A stretch of DNA of 64,000 nt from a virus. Made by a program: the position numbers and the translations under genes. The notes under the pieces are model-generated. The model saw nothing but the letters and a program-made list of their open reading frames with translations, was not told the origin of the DNA and ran no database searches. Below, piece after piece: positions 2,668-33,785 of this stretch (positions are counted from its first letter, which is position 1; each line of letters begins with the position of its first letter). The stretch lies in the IMG/VR virus record IMGVR_UViG_3300033553_000338, positions 64,001-128,000 of that record; one strand, given 5' to 3'.

Positions 2668-4974
2668 TTATACGATGTCTTTCCGAACCAATCGTTGCTG
2701 AGCATTGTCTGACATATACATCTGCTTCTCCTCAAGGTCAAGTGACCGGTCTTTTAGTTCCAGGACCCGGTCATTGTAATCTGTACGGCTGTCAAGATCC
2801 TTCTCTTTCAGCTCCAGATCTTTTTGATGTTTTTCTTTCTGTAACTGAAGCTCGGCCTGTTTAATATCAGACTGTACCTTATTCAAGCGTTCAATTTCTT
2901 TCTTGGCTTTCTCCACAACTTTGGTAAGCTCCTCCATCTCTTTATTCTTTTCTTCCAGAGCCTTGGAAAGATCACCATGTTTTTCTGCAATCTCAGCAGC
3001 GTATTCGATGATTTCGGAAGGATTGTCCATCATGACAATTCTCAGTCCGACCTCAACCGGCACAGCCCCTGTATTCATCGCAGCAGATACAATAGCCTTG
3101 GCCTCTTCCAACTTCGCTTTCTCAGCAGATGAATTGACCACCTTGATGCGGTAATTGGTGAAGCTAAAATATTTTGGAATGATGGAAAAGATAACTTTAC
3201 CCTCATTATATGTTCCTCTGTAATTATCATCCAGCGTAGTTTTCGACAAATTGATAAGATCTGTCAGCAAGTACTTCATCAGAACGTCATGTTCGTCATA
3301 CAAGTGCTTCAACACCAGTGATGAGTTGTTCATCCCTACCCTAACATTTGATACGGCTTCTCTTTGTTGGATCTCCCCGATCATTGCCGGGGTTACACCG
3401 GTGACCTTGGTGGCTTCCCCATCCAGATCCAGGATAGTTTGGTTGATCGCACTCAGCGACTCCCCGTTCACGGTCATATCAAAAGTACCATGAGTAGCCC
3501 CACTAACCGCAGCAGATCCTTCCTGGGTTGTATCCACCAAGTTTAGCCCGTTCTTGAGCATCTTGGAAGCTTTCAAAGCCCGTTCCATCTCGTTAACTCC
3601 ATAGAATTCCGGAATAGCAGAGTACTCTAGGGTCAGCCCACGGACACCGCTGTTAGCCAGCAGGTTGTCACGGTGAAAAACCATGATGTCATGTGTATCC
3701 TGGATATCCTTGCACTTCCAAAGGATGCTGTAGGTGCTGCCCCCACGATCTGAATGACGAACTCCGTTGAATGACAGGTAAACTTTATCAGGATCGGTAT
3801 CATGACGAACAGCGTCCTCAACAAGTCCCATGTCCAGGTAGATGCTGTCATCAACCCTGACGGACCGGAACAGGTGTTCCTTGATACGGGTTTTCCGGAT
3901 CTTCTCCGGGCCAACCACTACCCTACCCTCGCGGACATCATTTGGATCAATTTCGTATTCCGACAATCCGATCCATTCCGTCTCATAGACTTTGATCACT
4001 TCGGAATCATCACCAATCCCGTAGCGGTCCGGAGATGACTTTGCTAATTCAACATCCCGTTCCCCTTGCTGGTTGTATTCAGCTACAGTCATGTTGCTGG
4101 CCCAGGTCTCAGAAAACTTAACGGTACTGCACTGCATCAGCTCCTCACGCTCCTCATCTCCCATGAGATGTCCGTATTTCTGAAGAATGTCCCGTCTGCT
4201 CATGTAGCGGATGTAAACAAACTCCATCGCCTCGTTCATCATCATCTGATCCCTGCGCTTGGTGTAGTAAGCATTTTCCGGGATAAGAGCTTCCGGTTTT
4301 GGTTTCCTTCCTTTCTCAGTAGAGTACACGCGGTAAACCGCTTCCCCTACCACAGTCAGATCCATAAACAGGAGTGAACGAAGCATTGCCAAGTTAGCTA
4401 CCGGGCAATCGCGGTAATCCTCAATCAGGTTCACGGCACTCTCAAGGAACTTGTTACGCCATTTCCTGTTGGTTTCCGTCTTGGCCTGTTCGATTAAACG
4501 ATCAATAGCGGTAGGCTCCTCCCCCTCTTTCTTGGGTTTGACAGACTTTCCAAGACCTGCGTACAGGCTTGAAAGCAATTCAACAGATTGTTCCTGCTCC
4601 GCTAAGAACAGGGATTTATTGTCGGTTACTGTAACTTTGTAATCAAACTCGGTGGCTGACAAAAGGCCTACAAGCACATCAATCCGGTTACGAATAAGTG
4701 GAGTAAACTTGATTGCAGACGGTGACCCTACCCCGTAGTTATCTTCGAGGTATGCGAATTCCTTTTTATCGCGCAAACCGCTATAAAAATCCCGTTGTTT
4801 GAACATCAACTTTCTCCGTCTGGAGTTCTCGTCAACATTCCGATTGATCACCGCATCGGTCATCATCATCAGATAATCAAGGCTATCCCTTTTTTCTTCC
4901 AGGGACAGATTGAATTCATCAAATGCATCCCCTGGTTCGCCCAGGGAATCATTTCCTACGTCTTTGAAAGCCAT
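2668..4974 (-). CDS. Portal protein (crAss-like)
   Basis: 768 aa. IKFTPLIRNRIDVLVG, GVTPAMIGEIQQREAVSNV and a C-terminal coiled coil resemble Crassvirales portals; lies near TerL. Confidence 0.85.
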   Translation of the reverse strand: MAFKDVGNDSLGEPGDAFDEFNLSLEEKRDSLDYLMMMTDAVINRNVDENSRRRKLMFKQRDFYSGLRDKKEFAYLEDNYGVGSPSAIKFTPLIRNRIDVLVGLLSATEFDYKVTVTDNKSLFLAEQEQSVELLSSLYAGLGKSVKPKKEGEEPTAIDRLIEQAKTETNRKWRNKFLESAVNLIEDYRDCPVANLAMLRSLLFMDLTVVGEAVYRVYSTEKGRKPKPEALIPENAYYTKRRDQMMMNEAMEFVYIRYMSRRDILQKYGHLMGDEEREELMQCSTVKFSETWASNMTVAEYNQQGERDVELAKSSPDRYGIGDDSEVIKVYETEWIGLSEYEIDPNDVREGRVVVGPEKIRKTRIKEHLFRSVRVDDSIYLDMGLVEDAVRHDTDPDKVYLSFNGVRHSDRGGSTYSILWKCKDIQDTHDIMVFHRDNLLANSGVRGLTLEYSAIPEFYGVNEMERALKASKMLKNGLNLVDTTQEGSAAVSGATHGTFDMTVNGESLSAINQTILDLDGEATKVTGVTPAMIGEIQQREAVSNVRVGMNNSSLVLKHLYDEHDVLMKYLLTDLINLSKTTLDDNYRGTYNEGKVIFSIIPKYFSFTNYRIKVVNSSAEKAKLEEAKAIVSAAMNTGAVPVEVGLRIVMMDNPSEIIEYAAEIAEKHGDLSKALEEKNKEMEELTKVVEKAKKEIERLNKVQSDIKQAELQLQKEKHQKDLELKEKDLDSRTDYNDRVLELKDRSLDLEEKQMYMSDNAQQRLVRKDIV

Positions 4975-9529: not shown

Positions 9530-9757
9530 TTACCCTTTAAGCATGTCGTATGCAGCTTGTAGGTGGAGCATTGCTAAGTATTTTTTCATATCCCCCGTTT
9601 TCCGGTGTCCCTGCTGCATACGATCAATCATAATATCTAGGACAACCTCATCTGTTGTGCCGGGGTAATTGCCTTCGGCAAATCTAACTATCTGATCCTT
9701 AACCCCGGTTTCGGAATCTCCTAGACCGTATACCCGGCCAGCTTTAATTATTTCCAT
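9530..9757 (-). CDS. Short protein resembling Tad1/Acb2-type nucleotide-signal sponge helices
   Basis: GTTDEVVLDIMIDRMQQ and AMLHLQAAYDML resemble the two Tad1 helices as I recall them; the C-terminus is shortened. Confidence 0.35.
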   Translation of the reverse strand: MEIIKAGRVYGLGDSETGVKDQIVRFAEGNYPGTTDEVVLDIMIDRMQQGHRKTGDMKKYLAMLHLQAAYDMLKG

Positions 9758-10404
9758 TATTTTACTTTATAAGTGTCTGTAATATAATCAACTATGGCAT
9801 CAAAATGCATCGCTGCAACATCACTTTCCCCCTGGGGAGACATAATATATCTGCAGTCGCGCTCCGTGTCCATAAAAAAATTCTCTGTTAAAACTGCAGG
9901 ACATTGGGTATTGGTGAGCATATAGAATCTTGCTTCCTTGTCATGGTCACCATCACTCAAATCAAACCGCATCCTCCAGTCTTTACCCCATTTCTCCTGG
10001 GCATTGTAGCACAGAAAAGAGGCAATGTCGTCACTCCGAGTTTTACCAGGGGAAGTGTAGCATTCCCATCCGGTTCCTCCCCCAGCATTGGCATGGATGG
10101 AGATTAAAAATGAGTCCGGAAATCTTGTGTATAGTGAGTTTGCCCTGCGTACCCGTTCCCCCAGTGAGTTATCCAGGGTAGGGAGGTGGGTGAAATAAAC
10201 CGTTGCACCGGCCATATCCAAAAGATATTTGAGCTTCATGCAGACCGTTCTGTTAAACCCCCATTCAAGAAGTTGTTTCCCATCACTCCAGACAGGGGAT
10301 CTTTTCCCTGGAGTATCCGATCCGTGACCGGCATCCAGCATAATGATTCCTTTAAAGTGTCCCAGTGGGCCATCACCACCTCTGTAGTTTCCTAATAAGT
10401 CCAT
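9757..10404 (-). CDS. N-acetylmuramoyl-L-alanine amidase (Amidase_3), probable endolysin
   Basis: MLDAGHG, LEW, ISIHANA and PAVLTENFFMD zinc-binding/catalytic motifs. Confidence 0.92.
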   Translation of the reverse strand: MDLLGNYRGGDGPLGHFKGIIMLDAGHGSDTPGKRSPVWSDGKQLLEWGFNRTVCMKLKYLLDMAGATVYFTHLPTLDNSLGERVRRANSLYTRFPDSFLISIHANAGGGTGWECYTSPGKTRSDDIASFLCYNAQEKWGKDWRMRFDLSDGDHDKEARFYMLTNTQCPAVLTENFFMDTERDCRYIMSPQGESDVAAMHFDAIVDYITDTYKVK

Positions 10405-24322: not shown

Positions 24323-24507
24323 TGACCGACTACGGAGTACAAAGACTGGCTTTGGTACTTGCTGTTCAAGCAGAGGTAGAAGGTATGAAGGCTGAAAATT
24401 TAATCCGGGAGCAGCAGAATCTCTCACCTGCCTACGGAAGAGATAATTTTGAAGAAATGTCTGGAAGATTAACCAATTTAGCTTATTCAAATGATGACCA
24501 ACTTTAA
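24322..24507 (+). CDS. Small phage hypothetical protein
   Basis: EVEGMKAEN...AY motif; coupled ORF. Confidence 0.65.
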   Translation: MTDYGVQRLALVLAVQAEVEGMKAENLIREQQNLSPAYGRDNFEEMSGRLTNLAYSNDDQL

Positions 24508-25483
24508 TGCATTTGATTACGACCGCTATATTGTAGCATTTTCCGGAGGTAAAGACAGTGTAGCGTGTTTTTTACATTTGATTCAACTCGGTATCCCTTT
24601 GGAAAAAGTTGAACTTTGGCACCATCGGATCGATGGGCATGAGGGATCCAACTTAATGGATTGGCCGGTGACCGATGACTACTGCCGAAAGTTTGCAAAA
24701 GCTTTTGGGGTACCTATCTACTATTCTTGGAAAACTGAAGGATTTGAAGGGGAGTTACTTCGGGAAAACCGGAAGACTCTGCCCAATCGATTTGAGTATC
24801 CTGCGGAAGATTCCATTGTTGAGTGTGGATTGGTTGGAGGTGTTCGGGGAAAGGACTCCACCAGGAGATTGTTTCCCCAAGTTACCGCGAACCTGTCACA
24901 ACGTTGGTGCAGTGCCTATCTGAAAATCGATGTTGCTTCAGCTGCGCTGAATAACCAGAAACGATTCCACAACAAGCGGACCCTATTTATTACCGGGGAA
25001 CGTGCTGAGGAATCAACTGCCCGGGCACATTATGCAGTGTTTGAACCACATCGATGTGATGCCCGTAATGGAGTGAAGAAACGATGGGTTGACCATTGGA
25101 GACCGGTACATTCCTGGGGTGAGCCTCAGGTTTGGGATATTATAGAACGTGCCAATGTTTTACCACATCCGGCTTACCGGCTAGGGTGGGGGAGACTATC
25201 TTGTATGTTCTGTATCTTCGGATCTGATAACCAGTGGAAGTCTGCTCACGAGGTTGACCCTCAACGAGTGCAACGGATTATCCAGTATGAACAAGAATTC
25301 GGTAAAACCATTCATCGCAAGCTGAGTGTTATCGAACGAATATCTAAAGGAGTAGCCCACTGTAAAGATTGGGATCGAGAGCTTATCGCTCTGGCCTTGT
25401 CGGATACTTACACTGAAAGCATCTTTGCTGAAGAGTGGGAACTTCCCATTGGAGCCTATGGTGAGAACGCTGGACCTACTTAG
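24491..25483 (+). CDS. PAPS-reductase-family (PP-loop) protein
   Basis: VAFSGGKDS, RWCSAYLK, GERAEESTARA, HPAY and RLSCMFC. Confidence 0.88.
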   Translation: MMTNFNAFDYDRYIVAFSGGKDSVACFLHLIQLGIPLEKVELWHHRIDGHEGSNLMDWPVTDDYCRKFAKAFGVPIYYSWKTEGFEGELLRENRKTLPNRFEYPAEDSIVECGLVGGVRGKDSTRRLFPQVTANLSQRWCSAYLKIDVASAALNNQKRFHNKRTLFITGERAEESTARAHYAVFEPHRCDARNGVKKRWVDHWRPVHSWGEPQVWDIIERANVLPHPAYRLGWGRLSCMFCIFGSDNQWKSAHEVDPQRVQRIIQYEQEFGKTIHRKLSVIERISKGVAHCKDWDRELIALALSDTYTESIFAEEWELPIGAYGENAGPT

Positions 25484-26671: not shown

Positions 26672-28282
26672 CTATAGGTCACTGAAGGCATCATCGCTGG
26701 TCTCCATTTCCTCCTTACCGGTGATCATACACTCTGTAGTGAGGATCATCCCTGCAACTGAGGAAGCATTGAGTAAAGCATTCTTTGCAACCAATGAAGG
26801 GTCAATTACTTTGGTGATTAGCATATCTCCAAAGTCACCAGTCCGTAGGTTCAGGCAAGAATGTATATCTCCCTTAAGAATCATTTCAGCAGCAGAGCCG
26901 ATGGCGTTCTTTTTGCCGGCATTTGTAAGAATGCACTGAAAGGGAGCATGTAATGCTTGCTTCATGATTTCCCAGGCGATAACGTCATGGGTGTTTGAGC
27001 TATTGTAGCTTAATACTGAAGCAGCTCTCAGGTAAGTGGCACCACCACCGGGCACAACTCCGTCTTGGATAGCCGAACGACAGGCCGCGAGAGCATCGTC
27101 AATCCGGTCAATCTTTTCGCGGATCTCAAATTCGGAGTATGCTCCAACATTGATTGTTGCAATACCCCCGGTGAACTTCGCGTAACGCTGACGGTTTTTC
27201 TTCAAGTCAAACTCATCATCTGATGAGGCTACTTGTTTTTCGATAATCTCTTTACGCAGAGCCTTAAGCTCATTGCTACCATGTCCACCAATAATGGTGG
27301 TTGAGTTTTCGGTAACGATTACTTTCTCAGCTGATCCCAGGTACACAGATTTAAAGGATCCCAACAGATAACCTCTGTCCGGGGCAAATACAGTTGCACC
27401 GGTCATAGCTGCTATGTCATCCAAAGTCTCAACGCGGTAGGAACCGTGTTCCGGTGTATGAGTAGCACAAATTTCTACAGCTCCTTTCATCCGGTTTAGG
27501 ATAAGGTTGTTTAATACTTTCTGATCGTACTCATTGGCAATGATCAGTATAGGTCTTTTTTGCTCTTTGGCATAAGTAAGTACCTGGACAATTTCAGCTA
27601 CCTTTTCAATCTTTGCCTGGCACACTAAGATCAATGGGTCTTTAAGGATACACTGTTTTTTGTCCGGAGTATTGGAAAACTGACTGTTAAGGAATCCTTT
27701 CATGTACTCCAGACCATCGGTGAAGGTCACAGTTGTTTCAAAAGATGAGGATTCACCCAGTTCAATGACCCCCTGGTATCCAATACGGGAATAGGCCTGG
27801 TAGATTAGGTTTCCGATCTCTGTATCATTGTTCGCGGATATTGTGGCCACTTCACGCAGGATGTCCAGGTCTACCGGACGTTTTACACGGTCGATAAACT
27901 CTACAATCTCCTGAACTCGCAGGTCGATGCAACGCTTAAGCTCGACAGGATTGACATCTTTTTTCAGTGCCTCCATGCCCAGCTTGGTGATTGCATGTGC
28001 TAAAACCGTAGCAGTGGTTGTACCGTCACCGGCATCATCGGAAGTCCTGGAAGCTACCTCCTTTACAATGTTAGCTCCAAGGTTCTCAAAGGGATCCTCA
28101 AGGGTAATACTTCGGGCCACAGTCACACCGTCTTTGGTAATGTGGGCTTTTCCGGAGTTTCTTTCAATAATCACATTTCGTCCCATAGGCCCTAAGGTGA
28201 CTGAGACTGCCTTTGCAAGGATGGTCAATCCACGAAGGATTGCTTCCCTTGACTCATCGTTGAATTTAATTTGTTTTGCCAT
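26672..28282 (-). CDS. groEL: Chaperonin GroEL (Cpn60), 536 aa
   Basis: MAKQIKF...VTLGPMGRNV, ITKDGVTVA, GDGTTTATVLA, GVVPGGG; no GGM tail. Confidence 0.96.
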   Translation of the reverse strand: MAKQIKFNDESREAILRGLTILAKAVSVTLGPMGRNVIIERNSGKAHITKDGVTVARSITLEDPFENLGANIVKEVASRTSDDAGDGTTTATVLAHAITKLGMEALKKDVNPVELKRCIDLRVQEIVEFIDRVKRPVDLDILREVATISANNDTEIGNLIYQAYSRIGYQGVIELGESSSFETTVTFTDGLEYMKGFLNSQFSNTPDKKQCILKDPLILVCQAKIEKVAEIVQVLTYAKEQKRPILIIANEYDQKVLNNLILNRMKGAVEICATHTPEHGSYRVETLDDIAAMTGATVFAPDRGYLLGSFKSVYLGSAEKVIVTENSTTIIGGHGSNELKALRKEIIEKQVASSDDEFDLKKNRQRYAKFTGGIATINVGAYSEFEIREKIDRIDDALAACRSAIQDGVVPGGGATYLRAASVLSYNSSNTHDVIAWEIMKQALHAPFQCILTNAGKKNAIGSAAEMILKGDIHSCLNLRTGDFGDMLITKVIDPSLVAKNALLNASSVAGMILTTECMITGKEEMETSDDAFSDL

Positions 28283-28354
28283 ATTATAACTAGAATTATT
28301 ATCTAGTAAGAATATAATCAAAAATTGTCGTATAATCAATCTTAATTATTACTT

Positions 28355-29014
28355 TTGAAGCATTTTATCATGGAATATAAAGAACTCGAAGAACTTGTAA
28401 AAGCCGAAAAGGTTGAGTATATCATCATGGCTGATGGGACTAAAGCCAGGTTATTCATTTCAAACATGGATCGCCTTTGCAGATTTAAACCCAAATCTTC
28501 CAGAAGAGGGTATGTCCTATCCGAAGTTGATGTTAACACACTTCAGGCAATTGTGTACCTGAAAGAAAAAACCCAGGAGGATCTGGATAAAGATGAATTC
28601 AAGCTCATCTCAAAATACCGGAAGCTTGCGGAGAAATCCAGCTTCACAAATCCCTTTATTGAGGATTGTCGGTTTCTTCCTGCCACTTTGGAAGAGTGGG
28701 TTAAGCAAGGTAAGAAGAGCCTGTATGACTATCGTATCACCACTGGAAACCGGATTGATGGGAAGGTTATTACGCTTGACAAAATTTTCAGACTGTACCC
28801 AGAGGCAGTAAACTCCTTCAGGGATGCCATTAGAAAGAAAAGGGAAAGTAGGCATTCAGGTCCTATGGATGGGTATGATATGACAATCAGTACCCAGAAG
28901 AGGGGAGATGGTACCTTTGTAGGGTACCTTGCTATGGAGTTCAAGGGATGTGCCAATGGTTATTACTATGCCCTAATCAATGACAATACTTTTATAGGTG
29001 TTGATGTTGATTAA
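28355..29014 (+). CDS. Hypothetical protein
   Basis: 219-aa ORF after a promoter with a TACTTTTG box. Confidence 0.75.
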   Translation: MKHFIMEYKELEELVKAEKVEYIIMADGTKARLFISNMDRLCRFKPKSSRRGYVLSEVDVNTLQAIVYLKEKTQEDLDKDEFKLISKYRKLAEKSSFTNPFIEDCRFLPATLEEWVKQGKKSLYDYRITTGNRIDGKVITLDKIFRLYPEAVNSFRDAIRKKRESRHSGPMDGYDMTISTQKRGDGTFVGYLAMEFKGCANGYYYALINDNTFIGVDVD

Positions 29015-29346: not shown

Positions 29347-29377
29347 TTTGTATAATAGTTTTTAATGATTAAATTCG
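29347..29377 (+). promoter_or_regulatory. Promoter of the RNA island
   Basis: TTTG-N19-TAAATTCG containing the GTATAA-N6-TTAAT motif. Confidence 0.65.
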
Positions 29378-29382
29378 TGTAT

Positions 29383-29752
29383 TGTATGGCGTAAGCTATT
29401 CGATATAGTTCAATGCTACATTAAGTCGCATGTTTGGACCCGGGTTCGATTCCCGGCATCTCCACTCGTAGTCCAATTAAAAGAAGAAGTTGTCCGGGTA
29501 ATTCCCGGCTGATCTTAGGAGATTTTTGGGGTAGCCTAAGAAAGAATGACAAAAACATTTTCGGAAGTACTATAGGTACGTTATACCGGATTTGCCCATC
29601 CACGGGGATGACTGGTTTTGACAGGTGTGTAGAAGTGATGTAGGGAACACAAGCAGTTTTTTAAACGGCAAAACAATTCCATTATTTAGCAACGCGCAGG
29701 TCAGACTTGCAGCGTAGTTAACGGTTTCTCCTGGCTCCGTAATGCCGGGAAA
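29383..29752 (+). ncRNA. ssrA: Circularly permuted (two-piece) tmRNA: acceptor piece ~29383-29464, intervening segment, coding piece 29604-~29752
   Basis: The 3' module GGAC-CCGGG-TTCGATT-CCCGG-CATCTCC-A comes before the 5' module GGGGATG-ACTGGTTTTGAC. They form a 7-bp acceptor stem with G3:U70. P2 pairings TGATGTAG/CTACATTA and GAAC/GTTC. Tag 29667-29717 = GKTIPLFSNAQVRLAA*. Confidence 0.88.
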
Positions 29753-29753
29753 T

Positions 29754-29893
29754 GGGAAAGTAGCTCAGTTGGTAGAGCTGGAGGCTGAACGCCTCTGGAG
29801 AGCCTCGGAAACACGGATGCGTGTTTTGTCAGTAAAGGCCAACGAATCGGGGGACATCCCGAAAGTGCGTAGGTTCGAGTCCTACCTATCCCA
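29754..29893 (+). ncRNA. Oversized tRNA-like RNA (140 nt; GAA at the anticodon position; ~70-nt variable domain)
   Basis: Acceptor GGGAAAG/CTATCCC, D arm GCTC-AGTTGGTA-GAGC, GGAGG-CTGAACG-CCTCT, T arm GTAGG-TTCGAGT-CCTAC. Confidence 0.75.
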
Positions 29894-29912
29894 CAACTAA
29901 AATCAGCTATTA

Positions 29913-30100
29913 TGGTAGTTTACCCTTTAGTAGCGGATGTGCCGAATGTGACAATCTTTGCGAAATGCATTGAGATCCGGTGGTTCTATAAAATCGAAAA
30001 ACCACTGGGTAAATTAACCAAGAACACTTGCCTTAGGCCGAATTTGGGGTTCGGTAACTAAGCAAAGCACATTCGTAATCCCGGGATGGTTTATCCCGGG
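29913..30100 (+). ncRNA. Unassigned structured RNA (~190 nt)
   Basis: Multiple nested stems plus a long-range CGAATGTG/CACATTCG pairing; lies between two tRNA-like genes. Confidence 0.55.
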
Positions 30101-30105
30101 TACAA

Positions 30106-30194
30106 GGAGAGTTGGGTAAGAGGCTTAAGCCACCGGTTTGCTAAACCGGCGTACAGATTAAACTGTACCGGGGGTTCGAATCCCTCACTCTCCG
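30106..30194 (+). tRNA. tRNA-Ser(GCT)
   Basis: Acceptor GGAGAGT/ACTCTCC, G73, CCGGT-TTGCTAA-ACCGG, long variable arm, T arm with TTCGAAT loop. Confidence 0.93.
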
Positions 30195-30205
30195 CTGAAA
30201 TGTAT

Positions 30206-30333
30206 AGGGATATGACGGAATTGGTAGACGCTAAAGATGGAGGTATGAAACAATCAAGCTGCATTGTGCATGATGTGTAGAGCATGTTAGTAATATCTGT
30301 GAAGTCGTGCAGGTTCGAATCCTGCTATCTCTT
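30206..30333 (+). ncRNA. Oversized tRNA-like RNA (128 nt) with expanded anticodon domain
   Basis: Acceptor AGGGATA/TATCTCT, Leu-type D region ACGGAATTGGTAGACG, T arm GCAGG-TTCGAAT-CCTGC; no canonical anticodon arm. Confidence 0.7.
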
Positions 30334-30345
30334 AAAATTAAACAT

Positions 30346-30519
30346 GTATGTCTGTCCCAGTTGGGGGAGCATCTGGAGCACAAGGAAAGGGAGTCATGCC
30401 CCGGAACTTGTGTTCATGTACAATACCTGGAGTTTTTGTAAAAGTGTACATATTACACAAACTCCAATCATTGTCTTATGGAAACAAAAGGATGTAGGGT
30501 TCGAATCCCTGGATATACT
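30346..30519 (+). ncRNA. Oversized tRNA-like RNA (174 nt) with multibranched, pseudoknotted insert
   Basis: Acceptor GTATGTC/GATATAC, D arm TCCC-AGTTGG-GGGA, T arm TAGGG-TTCGAAT-CCCTG. Confidence 0.65.
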
Positions 30520-30526
30520 CTGATAC

Positions 30527-30615
30527 AAAAGACGGAAACAGGCATCGGTCCGGATTTGAATGGAGATACCATAGGCTTTCAGCGTAGGCTGATGATGCGG
30601 AAAACTAAGTCTTTT
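30527..30615 (+). ncRNA. Unassigned structured RNA (~90 nt)
   Basis: AAAAGAC/GTCTTTT, GCATC/GATGC, TCAGC/GCTGA and TGG/CCA stems. Confidence 0.45.
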
Positions 30616-30620
30616 TATCT

Positions 30621-30687
30621 GGACCTCTATCACTTTAGAATGGTTGCCCTTGGCTCAAGGGTTCAGGTTCGATTCCTGAGAGGTCCG
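30621..30687 (+). ncRNA. Minimal tRNA-like RNA (67 nt), non-canonical D and anticodon arms
   Basis: Acceptor GGACCTC/GAGGTCC, T arm TCAGG-TTCGATT-CCTGA, hairpin CCCTTG-GCT-CAAGGG. Confidence 0.6.
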
Positions 30688-30724
30688 CTTAGTTGGTTGG
30701 TTAGTTTTTTAGTGTTGGTTTTTT

Positions 30725-30796
30725 AGGTCTTTAGCTCAGTTGGAAGAGCGTTAGGTTCACCCCTAAAGGTCCCGGGTTCGAGTCCCGGAAGGCCCC
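30725..30796 (+). tRNA. tRNA with a 6-nt anticodon loop (TTCACC; Val-CAC-like, identity uncertain)
   Basis: Canonical D arm GCTC-AGTTGGAA-GAGC and T arm CCGGG-TTCGAGT-CCCGG; stem TTAGG/CCTAA; A1:C72 mismatch. Confidence 0.7.
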
Positions 30797-30810
30797 CAAA
30801 TTTAGTAACA

Positions 30811-31026
30811 ATGTTCACAGATAAAGTAAAGACAATGACACTCTTATCAGTAATTGCAGTAATAGTTCTATACTTAACCGTCTTCTACAGTTTCATACTG
30901 CCTAAGATGATCTACAGTGAGTCTAATTTTATTGCATCAATGGGGAGTTTCCTATTCTTTACCAGTCTGATAGCACTCTTGATTTTAATTAACATTTTTA
31001 AATATTTTCTTTTTATTAATCCTTAA
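30811..31026 (+). CDS. Small two-TM membrane protein
   Basis: Two hydrophobic segments. Confidence 0.6.
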   Translation: MFTDKVKTMTLLSVIAVIVLYLTVFYSFILPKMIYSESNFIASMGSFLFFTSLIALLILINIFKYFLFINP

Positions 31027-31038
31027 ATTTTATCAAAA

Positions 31039-31443
31039 ATGAAGAAGTACATTGTTGTTTTATTGCTAGTACTTAGCGCGTGTTTGATCCCGCAGATTGA
31101 CTGGGATCCTGGAGAAGGCTTGGATAAGCCTATTGTAGAAAATTGTATTGATTGCCCTGCCAGCATGGTTCAGGGGGTTACCGCGTATCAGATGATCCAC
31201 CAGGACATCAATCAGGTAGTGTATGCTCCTTTGGAGTATCAACCTTTGTCAGTGGAATCCACCGGTTTAAATCCAAAGCAAGCGACTCTACCAGAGAGTT
31301 TTCAGCGATTTCGACCCCAGAATAGTCTACAGGCGAAGTACCATCTATACAATACCATAAGCAAATTGAATCCCGAGTACATGGACCAGCATATTGATGC
31401 AACGGTCTTACGACACATTACAACTCAGGAATACCAGGTTTAG
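31039..31443 (+). CDS. Putative lipoprotein/secreted protein
   Basis: MKKYIVVLLLVLSAC signal peptide with an LSAC lipobox-like motif. Confidence 0.65.
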   Translation: MKKYIVVLLLVLSACLIPQIDWDPGEGLDKPIVENCIDCPASMVQGVTAYQMIHQDINQVVYAPLEYQPLSVESTGLNPKQATLPESFQRFRPQNSLQAKYHLYNTISKLNPEYMDQHIDATVLRHITTQEYQV

Positions 31444-31470
31444 CCTACAAAAGAAAGTACAATAAATAAT

Positions 31471-31503
31471 AAAAATCAGGTAGGGTTTTCTCTACCTGAT
31501 TTT
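31471..31503. terminator. Hairpin/terminator
   Basis: AAAATCAGGTAG-GGTTTTCT-CTACCTGATTTT. Confidence 0.65.
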
Positions 31504-31508
31504 CACAA

Positions 31509-31671
31509 GGGGATTAAGCTGTTGGACCAGCCCGGGGAGAATGTACCTGGAGAGTGTTTGTGGAGCGTGAAGCATATCCGAGGATTTAAGATAGCCTAAG
31601 GTAACACATAACGGTGTGTGAAATACAGAATCCTAAAAGTAGCCACTGAGGTTCGAGTCCTCAAATCCCCA
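31509..31671 (+). ncRNA. Oversized tRNA-like RNA (163 nt) with large variable domain
   Basis: Perfect acceptor GGGGATT/AATCCCC, D arm GCTG-TTGGAC-CAGC, T arm TGAGG-TTCGAGT-CCTCA. Confidence 0.7.
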
Positions 31672-32479: not shown

Positions 32480-32908
32480 ATGGAAAAATACCTATTAATT
32501 ACACTTTCTTGTCAAGAGGGGGAAAGAGCCTACACCCAGTATTGTCCCGTCATAACTATGGAAACTGACTTTAGAAAGGTAGCTGAGCAGCATGCCTCAA
32601 CTTTCTGGGGAGAAAGTGGGGTAGAGGAAAACGGCTATTGGTGGTTCTTTGGTGAGACTACAGTTTGTGTTGTGGACGTAATTGAAATCACCAAATCAGA
32701 GTATGAGATCTTCACAACGGTAAAATCCGGACGGTCCAAGCTAGGAAATGCATTGGATGTGTTAATTGAAGCCAGAAGCCTGTTTGAAGAATGGATGCCC
32801 GAGGATGAGACCTCCGCTGCAGAGTTCCAGGCAATCATAGAGAAGATCAATGTTTTAGAAACATCCCTTCCTAAGTATACAGAAATAGACTTTGGTGAAG
32901 ATGAGTAA
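32480..32908 (+). CDS. Hypothetical protein
   Basis: ATG 32480 (MEKYLL). Confidence 0.7.
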   Translation: MEKYLLITLSCQEGERAYTQYCPVITMETDFRKVAEQHASTFWGESGVEENGYWWFFGETTVCVVDVIEITKSEYEIFTTVKSGRSKLGNALDVLIEARSLFEEWMPEDETSAAEFQAIIEKINVLETSLPKYTEIDFGEDE

Positions 32909-33785
32909 ACTAACAGTACTCAGCTACGGAGCCGGTCAGGATAGTACTGCTATCCTGTACAAAATGATCTACGATAGGGAATTTCGGAATAAGTATGTCC
33001 CGGAAGATCTGATTGTCGTGATGGCCGAGACCGGAAATGAGCATCCAGAAACTGAGGATCATGTTGAATTTACACGAGGTCTTTGTAAAACGAATAACAT
33101 CCCTTTCTACCATCTGGGGTATAACTATACTCCGGACGGGTGGAAAGGAGGTTTGATAAAGTTCTATGAACGTACCTCAACAGTAGGATCCAAAGCCTTT
33201 CCCAAAACATGCACGGATAAGCTCAAAATACAGGCCATCTACAGCTTCCTTGAGCAGTATGTCCATAAGACCTATAAAACGGTTGCATTTGGACGGAAAC
33301 GTGCCCTGAAGGAGTTTGCTAACAAGTATGGGAAGATCGATGTATTGATTGGAATCGCAGCAGGGGAGGAGAAGCGGATAGCAGTTGATGGTAGCAGCCC
33401 AAATAAGTGGATGAATCTTGCTATTCGCAGGATCTACCCATTGGTTGACCTGGGTATGGACCGGGGGGCTTGTCAGAAATACATGTCTATGATAGGCATG
33501 CCAATTCCAATCCCATCAAACTGTATCCTCTGCCCATTTATGAGCAAACAGGAACTGTTGTACCTATCGTTAGCTTACCCGGAATGGTATCTGAAATGGG
33601 TAGACCTGGAGCAAACAAAGATCGATGCCAATAAACACATGGGAGCTAAGAATCTGGGAGTATGGGGTAAGAAATTACTACCTGAGATCCTGAAAGAAGC
33701 CCAGGAAAAGTTTGCTGATATGAGCTTTGAGGATCTGAAAGAGTATAAGATGTCCCATGGACATTGTGTTATGTCAAAGTATTAA
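32901..33785 (+). CDS. Second PAPS-reductase-like (PP-loop) protein
   Basis: VLSYGAGQDST, AETGNEHPET, CTDKLKI, YPLVD and SNCILCPF. Confidence 0.8.
   Translation: MSKLTVLSYGAGQDSTAILYKMIYDREFRNKYVPEDLIVVMAETGNEHPETEDHVEFTRGLCKTNNIPFYHLGYNYTPDGWKGGLIKFYERTSTVGSKAFPKTCTDKLKIQAIYSFLEQYVHKTYKTVAFGRKRALKEFANKYGKIDVLIGIAAGEEKRIAVDGSSPNKWMNLAIRRIYPLVDLGMDRGACQKYMSMIGMPIPIPSNCILCPFMSKQELLYLSLAYPEWYLKWVDLEQTKIDANKHMGAKNLGVWGKKLLPEILKEAQEKFADMSFEDLKEYKMSHGHCVMSKY

Follow-up and report, generated by a model that had tools for sequence, protein, structure and literature searches.

An island of tRNA-like modules lies between 29.4 and 31.7 kb of the 64-kb stretch of DNA analysed here (the window), which covers bases 64001-128000 of a 157,880-bp phage genome in IMG/VR. 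We put at about 0.55 the probability that this island encodes non-decoding stable RNAs built on tRNA frames, which would stand beside the phage's own transfer-messenger RNA (tmRNA) and one decoding tRNA. What is new in the island is its density, with six non-decoding look-alikes of at least four builds beside one tRNA and a phage tmRNA.

Eight copies of the T-arm word GGTTCRANTCC are present in the window, always on the + strand and always between 29443 and 31660; shuffles give a chance expectation of 0.37 copies and no shuffle reaches eight. The whole 157.9-kb genome holds one further copy outside the window. The eight copies mark a permuted tmRNA, a canonical tRNA-Ser(GCU) (module C) and six aberrant modules that we call B, D, E, F, G and H (Table 1). 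ARAGORN and Rfam recognise four of the eight, namely the tmRNA, tRNA-Ser, G and B, and a scan for acceptor stems, in which the T arm had to be followed directly by a 7-nt strand complementary to an upstream heptamer, added D, E, F and H. The acceptor pairs 7/7 in these last four modules and 6/7 in B and G. In B, D, E, G and H the loop of the D arm contains GG (G18G19), and CCA is encoded by none of the modules. Where a tRNA has its anticodon or variable region, the six aberrant modules carry a stretch of other sequence, 3 to 118 nt long and here called cargo. With the tRNA family RF00005 (gathering score 29 bits), G (52.7 bits), C (50.8) and B (42.8) score above the threshold and D (22.2) below it, and E, F and H are unreported at E values up to 10. 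A canonical anticodon arm, with a 5-bp stem, a 7-nt loop, U33 and a purine at position 37, is found in C alone.

These counts bear out the anatomy proposed in the initial annotation, which had been made from the letters of the window. It had described eight acceptor plus T-arm modules within 2.3 kb, and T-arm counting, ARAGORN, Rfam and the acceptor scan recover them; its single normal tRNA, Ser-GCT, is the one found by ARAGORN and Rfam. The four modules it had sized at 128-174 nt are B (140 nt), D (128 nt), E (174 nt) and H (163 nt), and the two it had described as having broken anticodon arms are F, with a 3-nt loop, and G, with a 6-nt loop. Its split tmRNA is detected by ARAGORN, with a tag peptide ending in LAA, and by RF04321 (tmRNA_permuted) at 29417-29717 with 67.5 bits against a gathering score of 47. 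Identity with known Rfam families had been named as an alternative, and most modules match none.

Module D connects the island to a wider family. Its acceptor (AGGGAUA/UAUCUCU) pairs 7/7 and contains G3:U70, present among the modules in D only, with U73 as discriminator. Its D loop (GGAAUUGGUAGAC) is of the Leu type, as is usual in bacterial tRNA-Leu, its T arm is GCAGG-UUCGAAU-CCUGC, and a weakly structured cargo of about 75 nt takes the place of the anticodon arm. We scanned IMG/VR for Leu-type D loops with a GGTTCGAATCC T arm 60-90 nt further on and found this pattern on at least 114 contigs. Among the matches listed, 100 of 115 modules have 7/7 acceptor pairing, with at least 48 distinct acceptor stems. 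Covariation was measured on 71 sequences with dissimilar cargo, prefiltered for at least 6/7 pairs (109 of the 115 passed). In their acceptor stems 98.1% of the cells pair, 203 cells change on both sides and all seven pairs do so. The covariation score is 0.585 as against 0.175 for shuffles, of which 0/500 reach it, and at most 0.11 for slid controls. Judged by this covariation, selection clearly maintains the tRNA top half in the family. Covariation of the inserts had been proposed as a check; it is the top half of the D family that covaries, and the inserts are hypervariable and unconserved.

A covariance model built from the 71 IMG/VR phage RNAs (R1) scores D over its full length with 67.3 bits (E 6e-19), as compared to 30-53 bits for the real tRNA-Leu genes of 36 related phages and 64-77 bits for the family members at another locus, L350, described below. 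B (22 bits) and H (18 bits) are, like E, F and G, non-members with at most 22 bits. The acceptor stem sequence of D is absent from the seed of the model and is nevertheless fully paired, and D shares with the family the Leu-type D loop, the T arm, the U before the T stem, the 7-bp acceptor and the cargo length of about 75 nt. Scored in this way, D is demonstrably a member of a widespread, predicted family of phage tRNA-scaffold RNAs. That D is a real RNA gene is well supported, because of the family covariation, the R1 score, the recurrence of aberrant modules in relatives and the one-sidedness of the damage. The other five are probable RNA genes, and for B, E, F, G and H the reading as non-decoding RNAs rests on anatomy and on recurrence in relatives. 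The family pattern was also found in 27 of 32 million prokaryotic contigs (185,579 species), mostly contigs of Bacteroidota and of metagenome-assembled genomes; Sphingobacterium, Flavobacterium and Capnocytophaga are among the genera with matching genomes. Cultured phages gave no informative match for the island or for a typical family member.

The remaining modules show several ways of departing from a tRNA. B has canonical D and T arms and, directly after the D arm, a hairpin (GGAGG-CUGAACG-CCUCU) that mimics a Phe-GAA anticodon arm but has C37. It carries about 66-68 nt extra, ending in a second hairpin (UCGGG-GGACAU-CCCGA) that can be aligned with the anticodon arm of G. The D arms of B and G are 94% identical, and the 3' hairpin plus T arm of B is 75% identical to the anticodon arm plus T arm of G, so that B is a gene of the G type, enlarged by about 66 nt behind its D arm. 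G itself has the 6-nt anticodon loop UUCACC, where a 7-nt register requires an A/A mismatch and gives C37; its Rfam alignment misses one loop position and it has an A1/C72 mismatch. Anticodon loops of 6 or 8 nt occur in 32 (3%) of the 1,051 tRNAs that ARAGORN calls in the phage loci sampled, and forms like G thus recur in phage tRNA arrays.

E consists of an acceptor, the D arm UCCC-AGUUGG-GGGA and a T arm with no variable loop, and at the position of the anticodon stem a 5-bp stem (CAUCU/GGAUG) encloses three hairpins (118 nt). Its unconstrained minimum free energy fold yields this cloverleaf-plus-cargo shape. A 49-codon open reading frame (ORF) spans nearly all of E and is probably fortuitous, since about one in ten stretches of that length is open. 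F is a minimal form with the acceptor GGACCUC/GAGGUCC, a T arm, a poor D arm and, in place of the anticodon arm, a 6-bp hairpin with its 3-nt loop (fold z score -3.25). H combines the acceptor GGGGAUU/AAUCCCC and discriminator A73 with the D arm GCUG-UUGGAC-CAGC and a stem with a 9-nt loop at the anticodon position, which is followed by about 97 nt of partly structured insert before the T arm. At 31517-31523 H has A8 and U14 (the first D-loop position) instead of the near-universal U8 and A14; this single observation may represent a swapped tertiary pair.

Aberrant modules recur in relatives of the phage. L100, whose terminase (TerL) is 65% identical, has no canonical tRNA in the syntenic interval; the interval contains a permuted tmRNA that is degenerate, together with three tRNA-like modules (81-106 nt) whose anticodon regions are abnormal. 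In the L100 tmRNA (9708-9940) the T arm is degenerate and the score of 28.9 bits does not reach the gathering score; its tag frame and that of the window tmRNA share a conserved end. A small hydrophobic ORF also lies between the tRNA-like modules of L100. G001 (TerL 46% identical) has a cluster of four to five aberrant modules in which ARAGORN calls no tRNA. At L350, downstream of a 43%-identical homologue of the 219-aa gene that precedes the island, four modules at 2775-4301 have an identical acceptor (AGTCAGG/CCTGACT) and T arm and four unrelated cargos, and three of the four are the R1 members at 64-77 bits. A repeated leader stands ahead of each of these modules and ends in the hairpin GAGGACUUCUCAUCCUC a few nt before it. 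The interpretation in the initial annotation is supported in part: the proposed pattern of tRNA bodies as scaffolds for cargo is seen at L350, with one scaffold and four cargos, and in the D family; as regards the cargo itself, it is unconserved between relatives and clearly structured solely in E.

Several searches for homologues returned little. BLAST of the island against the relatives gave matches limited to the tmRNA tag region, tRNA-Ser and the T arms. A single-sequence TerL search of IMG/VR gave no match, a GroEL search for relatives gave one unrelated locus without tRNAs, and a first metagenome scan with an alignment of the flanking protein found no relatives. TerL relatives at 64-68% identity lie on short contigs, save one 37.5-kb contig that could be followed to its island.

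Most of the odd modules (B, E, F, G, H and perhaps D) could instead be decaying remnants of a former phage tRNA array, an explanation that we regard as rather unlikely. A number of observations speak for it, and some of them also weigh against our interpretation. The cargo of the island is not conserved in L100, the closest syntenic relative, and shuffled sequences fold as well as that of D (z +0.1). The paralogues B and G are set apart by a single large insertion, the tmRNA and tRNA-like modules of L100 fall below Rfam thresholds and in one G001 module just 4/7 acceptor positions pair. With 15-29 good tRNAs in related phages, loss in this lineage is plausible. The modules were found through their T arms, which biases the sample towards intact top halves and makes the perfection of the T arms partly an effect of ascertainment. 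We dropped an argument that had compared 8/8 T arms with the exact motif to 59% of the real tRNAs in relatives; it is circular because the modules were found by the same motif. Further points count against the proposed reading. D has U73 where 83% of family members have A, and an A/C mismatch in its D stem; the cargo of the family, 60-90 nt long, is hypervariable, with only slight structure on average (mean z -0.94). Of the protein families encoded nearby, none is common to more than 16 of the 114 family loci, and B, E, F, G and H have no homologues detectable elsewhere. Among sequencing runs containing the stretch there is no RNA run, and the two DNA runs, from one cold-spring study, have an identical island. 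Candidate "joints" in the cold-spring runs were rejected as ordinary tRNAs of other organisms with the same D-arm and T-arm words.

Decay nevertheless sits poorly with other observations. The D family combines the same "damage" with strong compensatory covariation of the acceptor across its many stem variants, and aberrant modules with intact acceptors recur in lineages as distant as 46% TerL identity. At L350 a single scaffold has been kept in four copies, each with its own cargo. Within an intact four-way junction, the 118-nt insert of E is folded much better than expected by chance. Finally, neutral damage should strike acceptors equally, yet four acceptors are 7/7 and two are 6/7, and every anticodon region is abnormal.

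It is highly improbable, in our judgement, that the modules are functional decoding tRNAs whose inserts are spliced out or tolerated as extra arms. We examined this with a deletion test in which every contiguous deletion that joins the sequence after the D arm to the sequence before the variable loop and T stem, restoring a 17-nt arm and a variable loop of 4-5 nt, was considered. For controls we took over-long class-I-type modules of IMG/VR in which a T arm stands 60-90 nt after the common D arm TAGCTCAGTTGGTAGAGC (114 hits, of which 87 have 7/7 acceptor stems). The test rescues 44 of the 74 unique controls (59%) to a perfect tRNA as against 1.35% of internally shuffled versions. The test is thus effective, and there are phage tRNA genes that do have intron-like inserts; in another relative, G014, inserts in the D loop likewise accompany canonical anticodon arms. 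The tRNA-family scores of B and G could be taken in the same sense, as could the intron mode of ARAGORN, which proposes a weak Pro-GGG tRNA with a 63-nt intron for B. Yet this Pro reading needs a mismatched stem and a 9-nt variable loop, and the deletion test gives for B solely a GAA loop with C37, a pyrimidine. For D, E and H no canonical anticodon arm is obtained, relaxed settings included, and the loops of F and G have 3 and 6 nt. In the family of D, 16% of the modules are "spliceable", which is the chance level given the wider range of variable loops allowed. Rfam intron and ribozyme families, group I included, have no match in the island at E values up to 10, the inserts being 55-118 nt where a group I intron would have about 200 nt or more with the P3-P9 core, and genes for a CCA-adding enzyme, RtcB, an RNA ligase or Ro60 were searched for in the phage and none was found. 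Splicing to ordinary tRNAs is unlikely on account of the failed deletion test, the lack of an intron or ribozyme match and the lack of an RtcB or RNA-ligase gene. The initial annotation had itself named splicing as an alternative, and no single deletion leads D, E or H to an ordinary tRNA. By their anticodon regions, the six aberrant RNAs cannot decode.

The same surveys brought up other unusual phage tRNA genes. IMG/VR loci L216-L329 (e.g. L230, L216, L220, L306) contain a widespread class of oversized phage tRNA genes, to which the 44 controls rescued in the deletion test belong, that have one insert of 40-63 nt, mostly at nt 28/29 of the 5' strand of the anticodon stem, and are otherwise perfect. 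The inserts contain a hairpin that covaries, together with an invariant CAGC(A), or have AGTTACTT at their end; the class corresponds to no Rfam family and was not found in the literature searched. The 179-kb crAss-like relative G014 (L087; 1540-6256 and 14208-14311 (-)) has about ten tRNA genes of 104-133 nt with a ~50-nt insert in or beside the D loop, consisting of a hairpin plus GTTACTTACAAYA; the anticodon arms are canonical (Ile-GAU, Asp-GUC, Met-CAU). The insert motif is present in 14 copies against a background of about 3 and is specific to the G014 genome. The word ACTTAYAAYA, common to the G014 inserts and half-matched in E, was rejected as a shared motif on the ground of this specificity and is a weak lead only. 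L088, L089, L090 and L093 (G031, G033, G009 and G023) have class I tRNAs (Pro, Lys, Asn, Thr, Arg) of 82-92 nt with long variable arms, normally a feature of class II.

The initial annotation had described the inserts as well paired and the gaps between modules as filled with structured RNAs. As compared to shuffles, the insert of E is clearly structured (z -3.2, 0/200), those of B (-2.0) and H (-1.75) are marginal, and that of D is not. As to the gaps, the spacer at 29960-30105 consists of a closed three-hairpin multibranch domain plus the hairpin CCCGGGAUGGUUUAUCCCGGG, ending 5 nt before tRNA-Ser, and is strongly structured; the spacer between E and F folds mildly as a closed domain. The remaining spacers do not follow the description, that at 30688-30724 for example being unstructured.

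This layout raises another alternative, that the modules are processing punctuation: cuts by RNase P and RNase Z would free the flanking mRNAs, tmRNA pieces and spacers, and the modules would be by-products. All modules are co-oriented with the flanking genes, G lies 13 nt ahead of a small ORF and H 42 nt ahead of the ORF that follows it, a module of L100 lies 26 nt upstream of a small ORF, and stable hairpins end 4-5 nt before B, C and H. The mechanism has precedents in mitochondrial tRNA punctuation and in the t-elements of plant mitochondria, which are known tRNA-like processing elements (PMC1920247). Punctuation, however, needs neither 60-120 nt of cargo nor a four-copy scaffold array with differing cargo. 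In addition D, E and F are consecutive without an intervening ORF and a terminator-like hairpin stands directly before H. We therefore find punctuation very doubtful as an explanation of the island, even if it is compatible with our interpretation and does not exclude it.

If the island does encode non-decoding RNAs on tRNA frames, a plausible path for them can be sketched. RNase P, the 3' trimming enzymes, the CCA-adding enzyme and the enzymes that modify the T and D loops recognise the tRNA top half. Because the elbow is read by RNase P, 3' trimming and the CCA enzyme, the modules would probably be excised from longer transcripts by the host tRNA-processing machinery and stabilised like tRNAs, and CCA would come from the host enzyme as none of them encodes it. 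They would accumulate as stable small RNAs, as RNA C of phage T4 does, and may act on a host tRNA-binding factor via the tRNA-like body, the variable cargo, or both. Two features favour the frame as the active part, namely that it is conserved where its cargo is hypervariable and that Leu-type frames are prominent. The leucyl-, alanyl- and seryl-tRNA synthetases (LeuRS, AlaRS, SerRS) do not read the anticodon, and the candidates for charging would be LeuRS for the Leu-type frames, AlaRS for D with its G3:U70, and SerRS. A natural array with the frame as its business end could provide decoys or sponges that may be aminoacylated and that act against tRNA-directed immunity or tRNA-sensing factors, or amino-acid donors outside translation, its cargo having been diversified by an arms race; we consider this version improbable. 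The identical frames with different cargos at L350 and the elaborate fold of E favour the cargo as the active part. Complementarity of the cargo to the phage genome, considered for antisense targets, is limited to chance-level 12-14-mers.

The closest known counterpart in build is T4 RNA C (species 1 RNA, rnaC; 139 nt), which like the island modules is encoded within a phage tRNA cluster. Its canonical T arm (CCGGG-UUCGAAU-CCCGG) is followed directly by the 3' strand of an acceptor-like stem, and a strongly folded insert of about 90 nt (z -4.6) stands in for the rest of the tRNA; it is absent from Rfam. In contrast to the modules it has no D arm and pairs 5/7 acceptor positions on its annotated ends, and its sequence is not detectably related to theirs. 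Beside its eight good tRNAs T4 carries one or two such RNAs (RNA C, RNA D), whereas this phage has six beside one. The island RNAs would work like RNA C, for whose class there is no family by which membership could be defined. RNA C is reportedly a substrate of RNase P and of CCA addition. It is expressed late in infection (PMC9697503) and its role is unknown according to reviews (PMC3014915). The initial annotation had not recognised the arrangement as a described system; no description of a natural phage array or RNA family of this kind was found in the literature searched, although T4 RNA C has the same build.

Other systems share part of the logic. The Y RNAs of the YrlA type are non-decoding, have a tRNA-like domain of acceptor, T and D arms and are found in phages, and M. 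smegmatis YrlA is a substrate of RNase P and the CCA enzyme (PMC4201824). The ends of YrlA, however, form a Ro60-binding stem and its gene lies beside the Ro60 gene (PMC4201824), whereas the ends of the island RNAs form the acceptor stem. We rejected identity with YrlA: the best RF02553 hit (30662-30749) has 19 bits against a gathering score of 69, and the Ro60/TROVE domain (PF05731) has no match in the complete 157.9-kb genome. The tmRNA resembles the modules in its acceptor/T-arm frame with a large functional insert and in its processing by tRNA enzymes. Its resume codon, tag reading frame and pseudoknot organisation are absent from B and D-H, and its alanine identity element G3:U70 is shared by D only. 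Engineered tRNA scaffolds, polycistronic tRNA-guide arrays and mascRNA use the elbow as processing signal or stabilising frame by the same logic, for foreign RNA placed at the anticodon position, in laboratory, eukaryotic or organellar settings.

The genome that contains the island has direct terminal repeats, is complete according to CheckV and comes from a cold-spring metagenome. Its TerL shares about 30% identity with the terminases that crAss-like phages of Bacteroides, Flavobacterium and Cellulophaga encode; by this measure it is a distant crAss-like phage, and its host is probably a member of Bacteroidota. The island, with tRNA-Ser(GCU) as the sole ordinary tRNA of the phage, sits within a co-oriented block of small genes on the + strand. 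A homologue of the 219-aa gene at 30-51% identity is present in 119 of 120 metagenome loci, these loci having been chosen by its back-translated C-terminal motif; in most gut relatives no tRNA comes after it. PAPS-reductase-like paralogues stand on either side of the island and a chaperonin gene lies upstream; in the relative L098 a Cpn10 domain protein adjoins the terminase. The 71-aa and 134-aa ORFs between G and H have no PHROG match, and a 251-aa ORF downstream of the island is an orphan.

Table 1. Coordinates of the island modules, structured spacers and flanking genes in the window (z, folding z score against shuffles).
Feature	Position	Strand	Remarks
PAPS-reductase-like paralogue	24491-25483	+	
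GroEL-type chaperonin	26672-28339	-	PHROG 5725, E 3e-142
219-aa protein gene	28355-29014		Upstream of island; conserved across crAss-like phages; C-terminus C-x-NGYYY-x-LIND
Permuted two-piece tmRNA	29375-29808	+	ARAGORN; acceptor/T-arm piece precedes coding piece; tag GKTIPLFSNAQVRLAA*
Module B, 140 nt	29754-29893	+	Rfam tRNA, 42.8 bits; insert in variable region
Structured spacer, 146 nt	29960-30105	+	z -4.3, 0/200 shuffles; no Rfam match
Module C, canonical class II tRNA-Ser(GCU)	30106-30195	+	ARAGORN; Rfam tRNA, 50.8 bits (30106-30194)
Module D, 128 nt	30206-30333	+	R1 model, 67.3 bits, E 6e-19, full length
Module E, 174 nt	30346-30519	+	Acceptor scan 7/7; no Rfam match
49-codon ATG ORF	30348-30497		Within module E
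Spacer between E and F	30520-30620	+	Folds as closed domain, z -1.95
Module F, 67 nt	30621-30687	+	Acceptor scan; missed by ARAGORN and Rfam
Module G, 73 nt	30725-30797	+	ARAGORN "tRNA-??? (ca)"; Rfam tRNA, 52.7 bits (30725-30796)
Two small ORFs between G and H	30811-31443	+	71 aa (hydrophobic) and 134 aa; first begins 13 nt past G
Perfect 12-bp hairpin, then UUUUCAC	31472-31503	+	Terminator-like on both strands; z -5.6; ends 5 nt before H
Module H, 163 nt	31509-31671	+	Acceptor scan; no Rfam match
PAPS-reductase-like paralogue	32892-33785	+	

Phage tRNA clusters are usually regarded as aids to codon usage or as spares in the face of anticodon nucleases. This phage, with its complete 158-kb genome, has a single tRNA that decodes and six RNAs of tRNA shape that cannot. 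Genes of this kind are currently missed by annotation or mislabelled as pseudo-tRNAs. The presence of the D family on at least 114 phage contigs and its rarity in prokaryotic contigs point to a widespread, uncatalogued class of phage small RNAs that would use host tRNA processing. A tractable host-phage pair with such RNAs would make the 50-year-old question of T4 RNA C, the sole example that has been studied, testable, and if the frame does act as a decoy, this would give RNA C a function. Such RNAs could reveal a new layer of phage-host conflict around tRNA-binding proteins.

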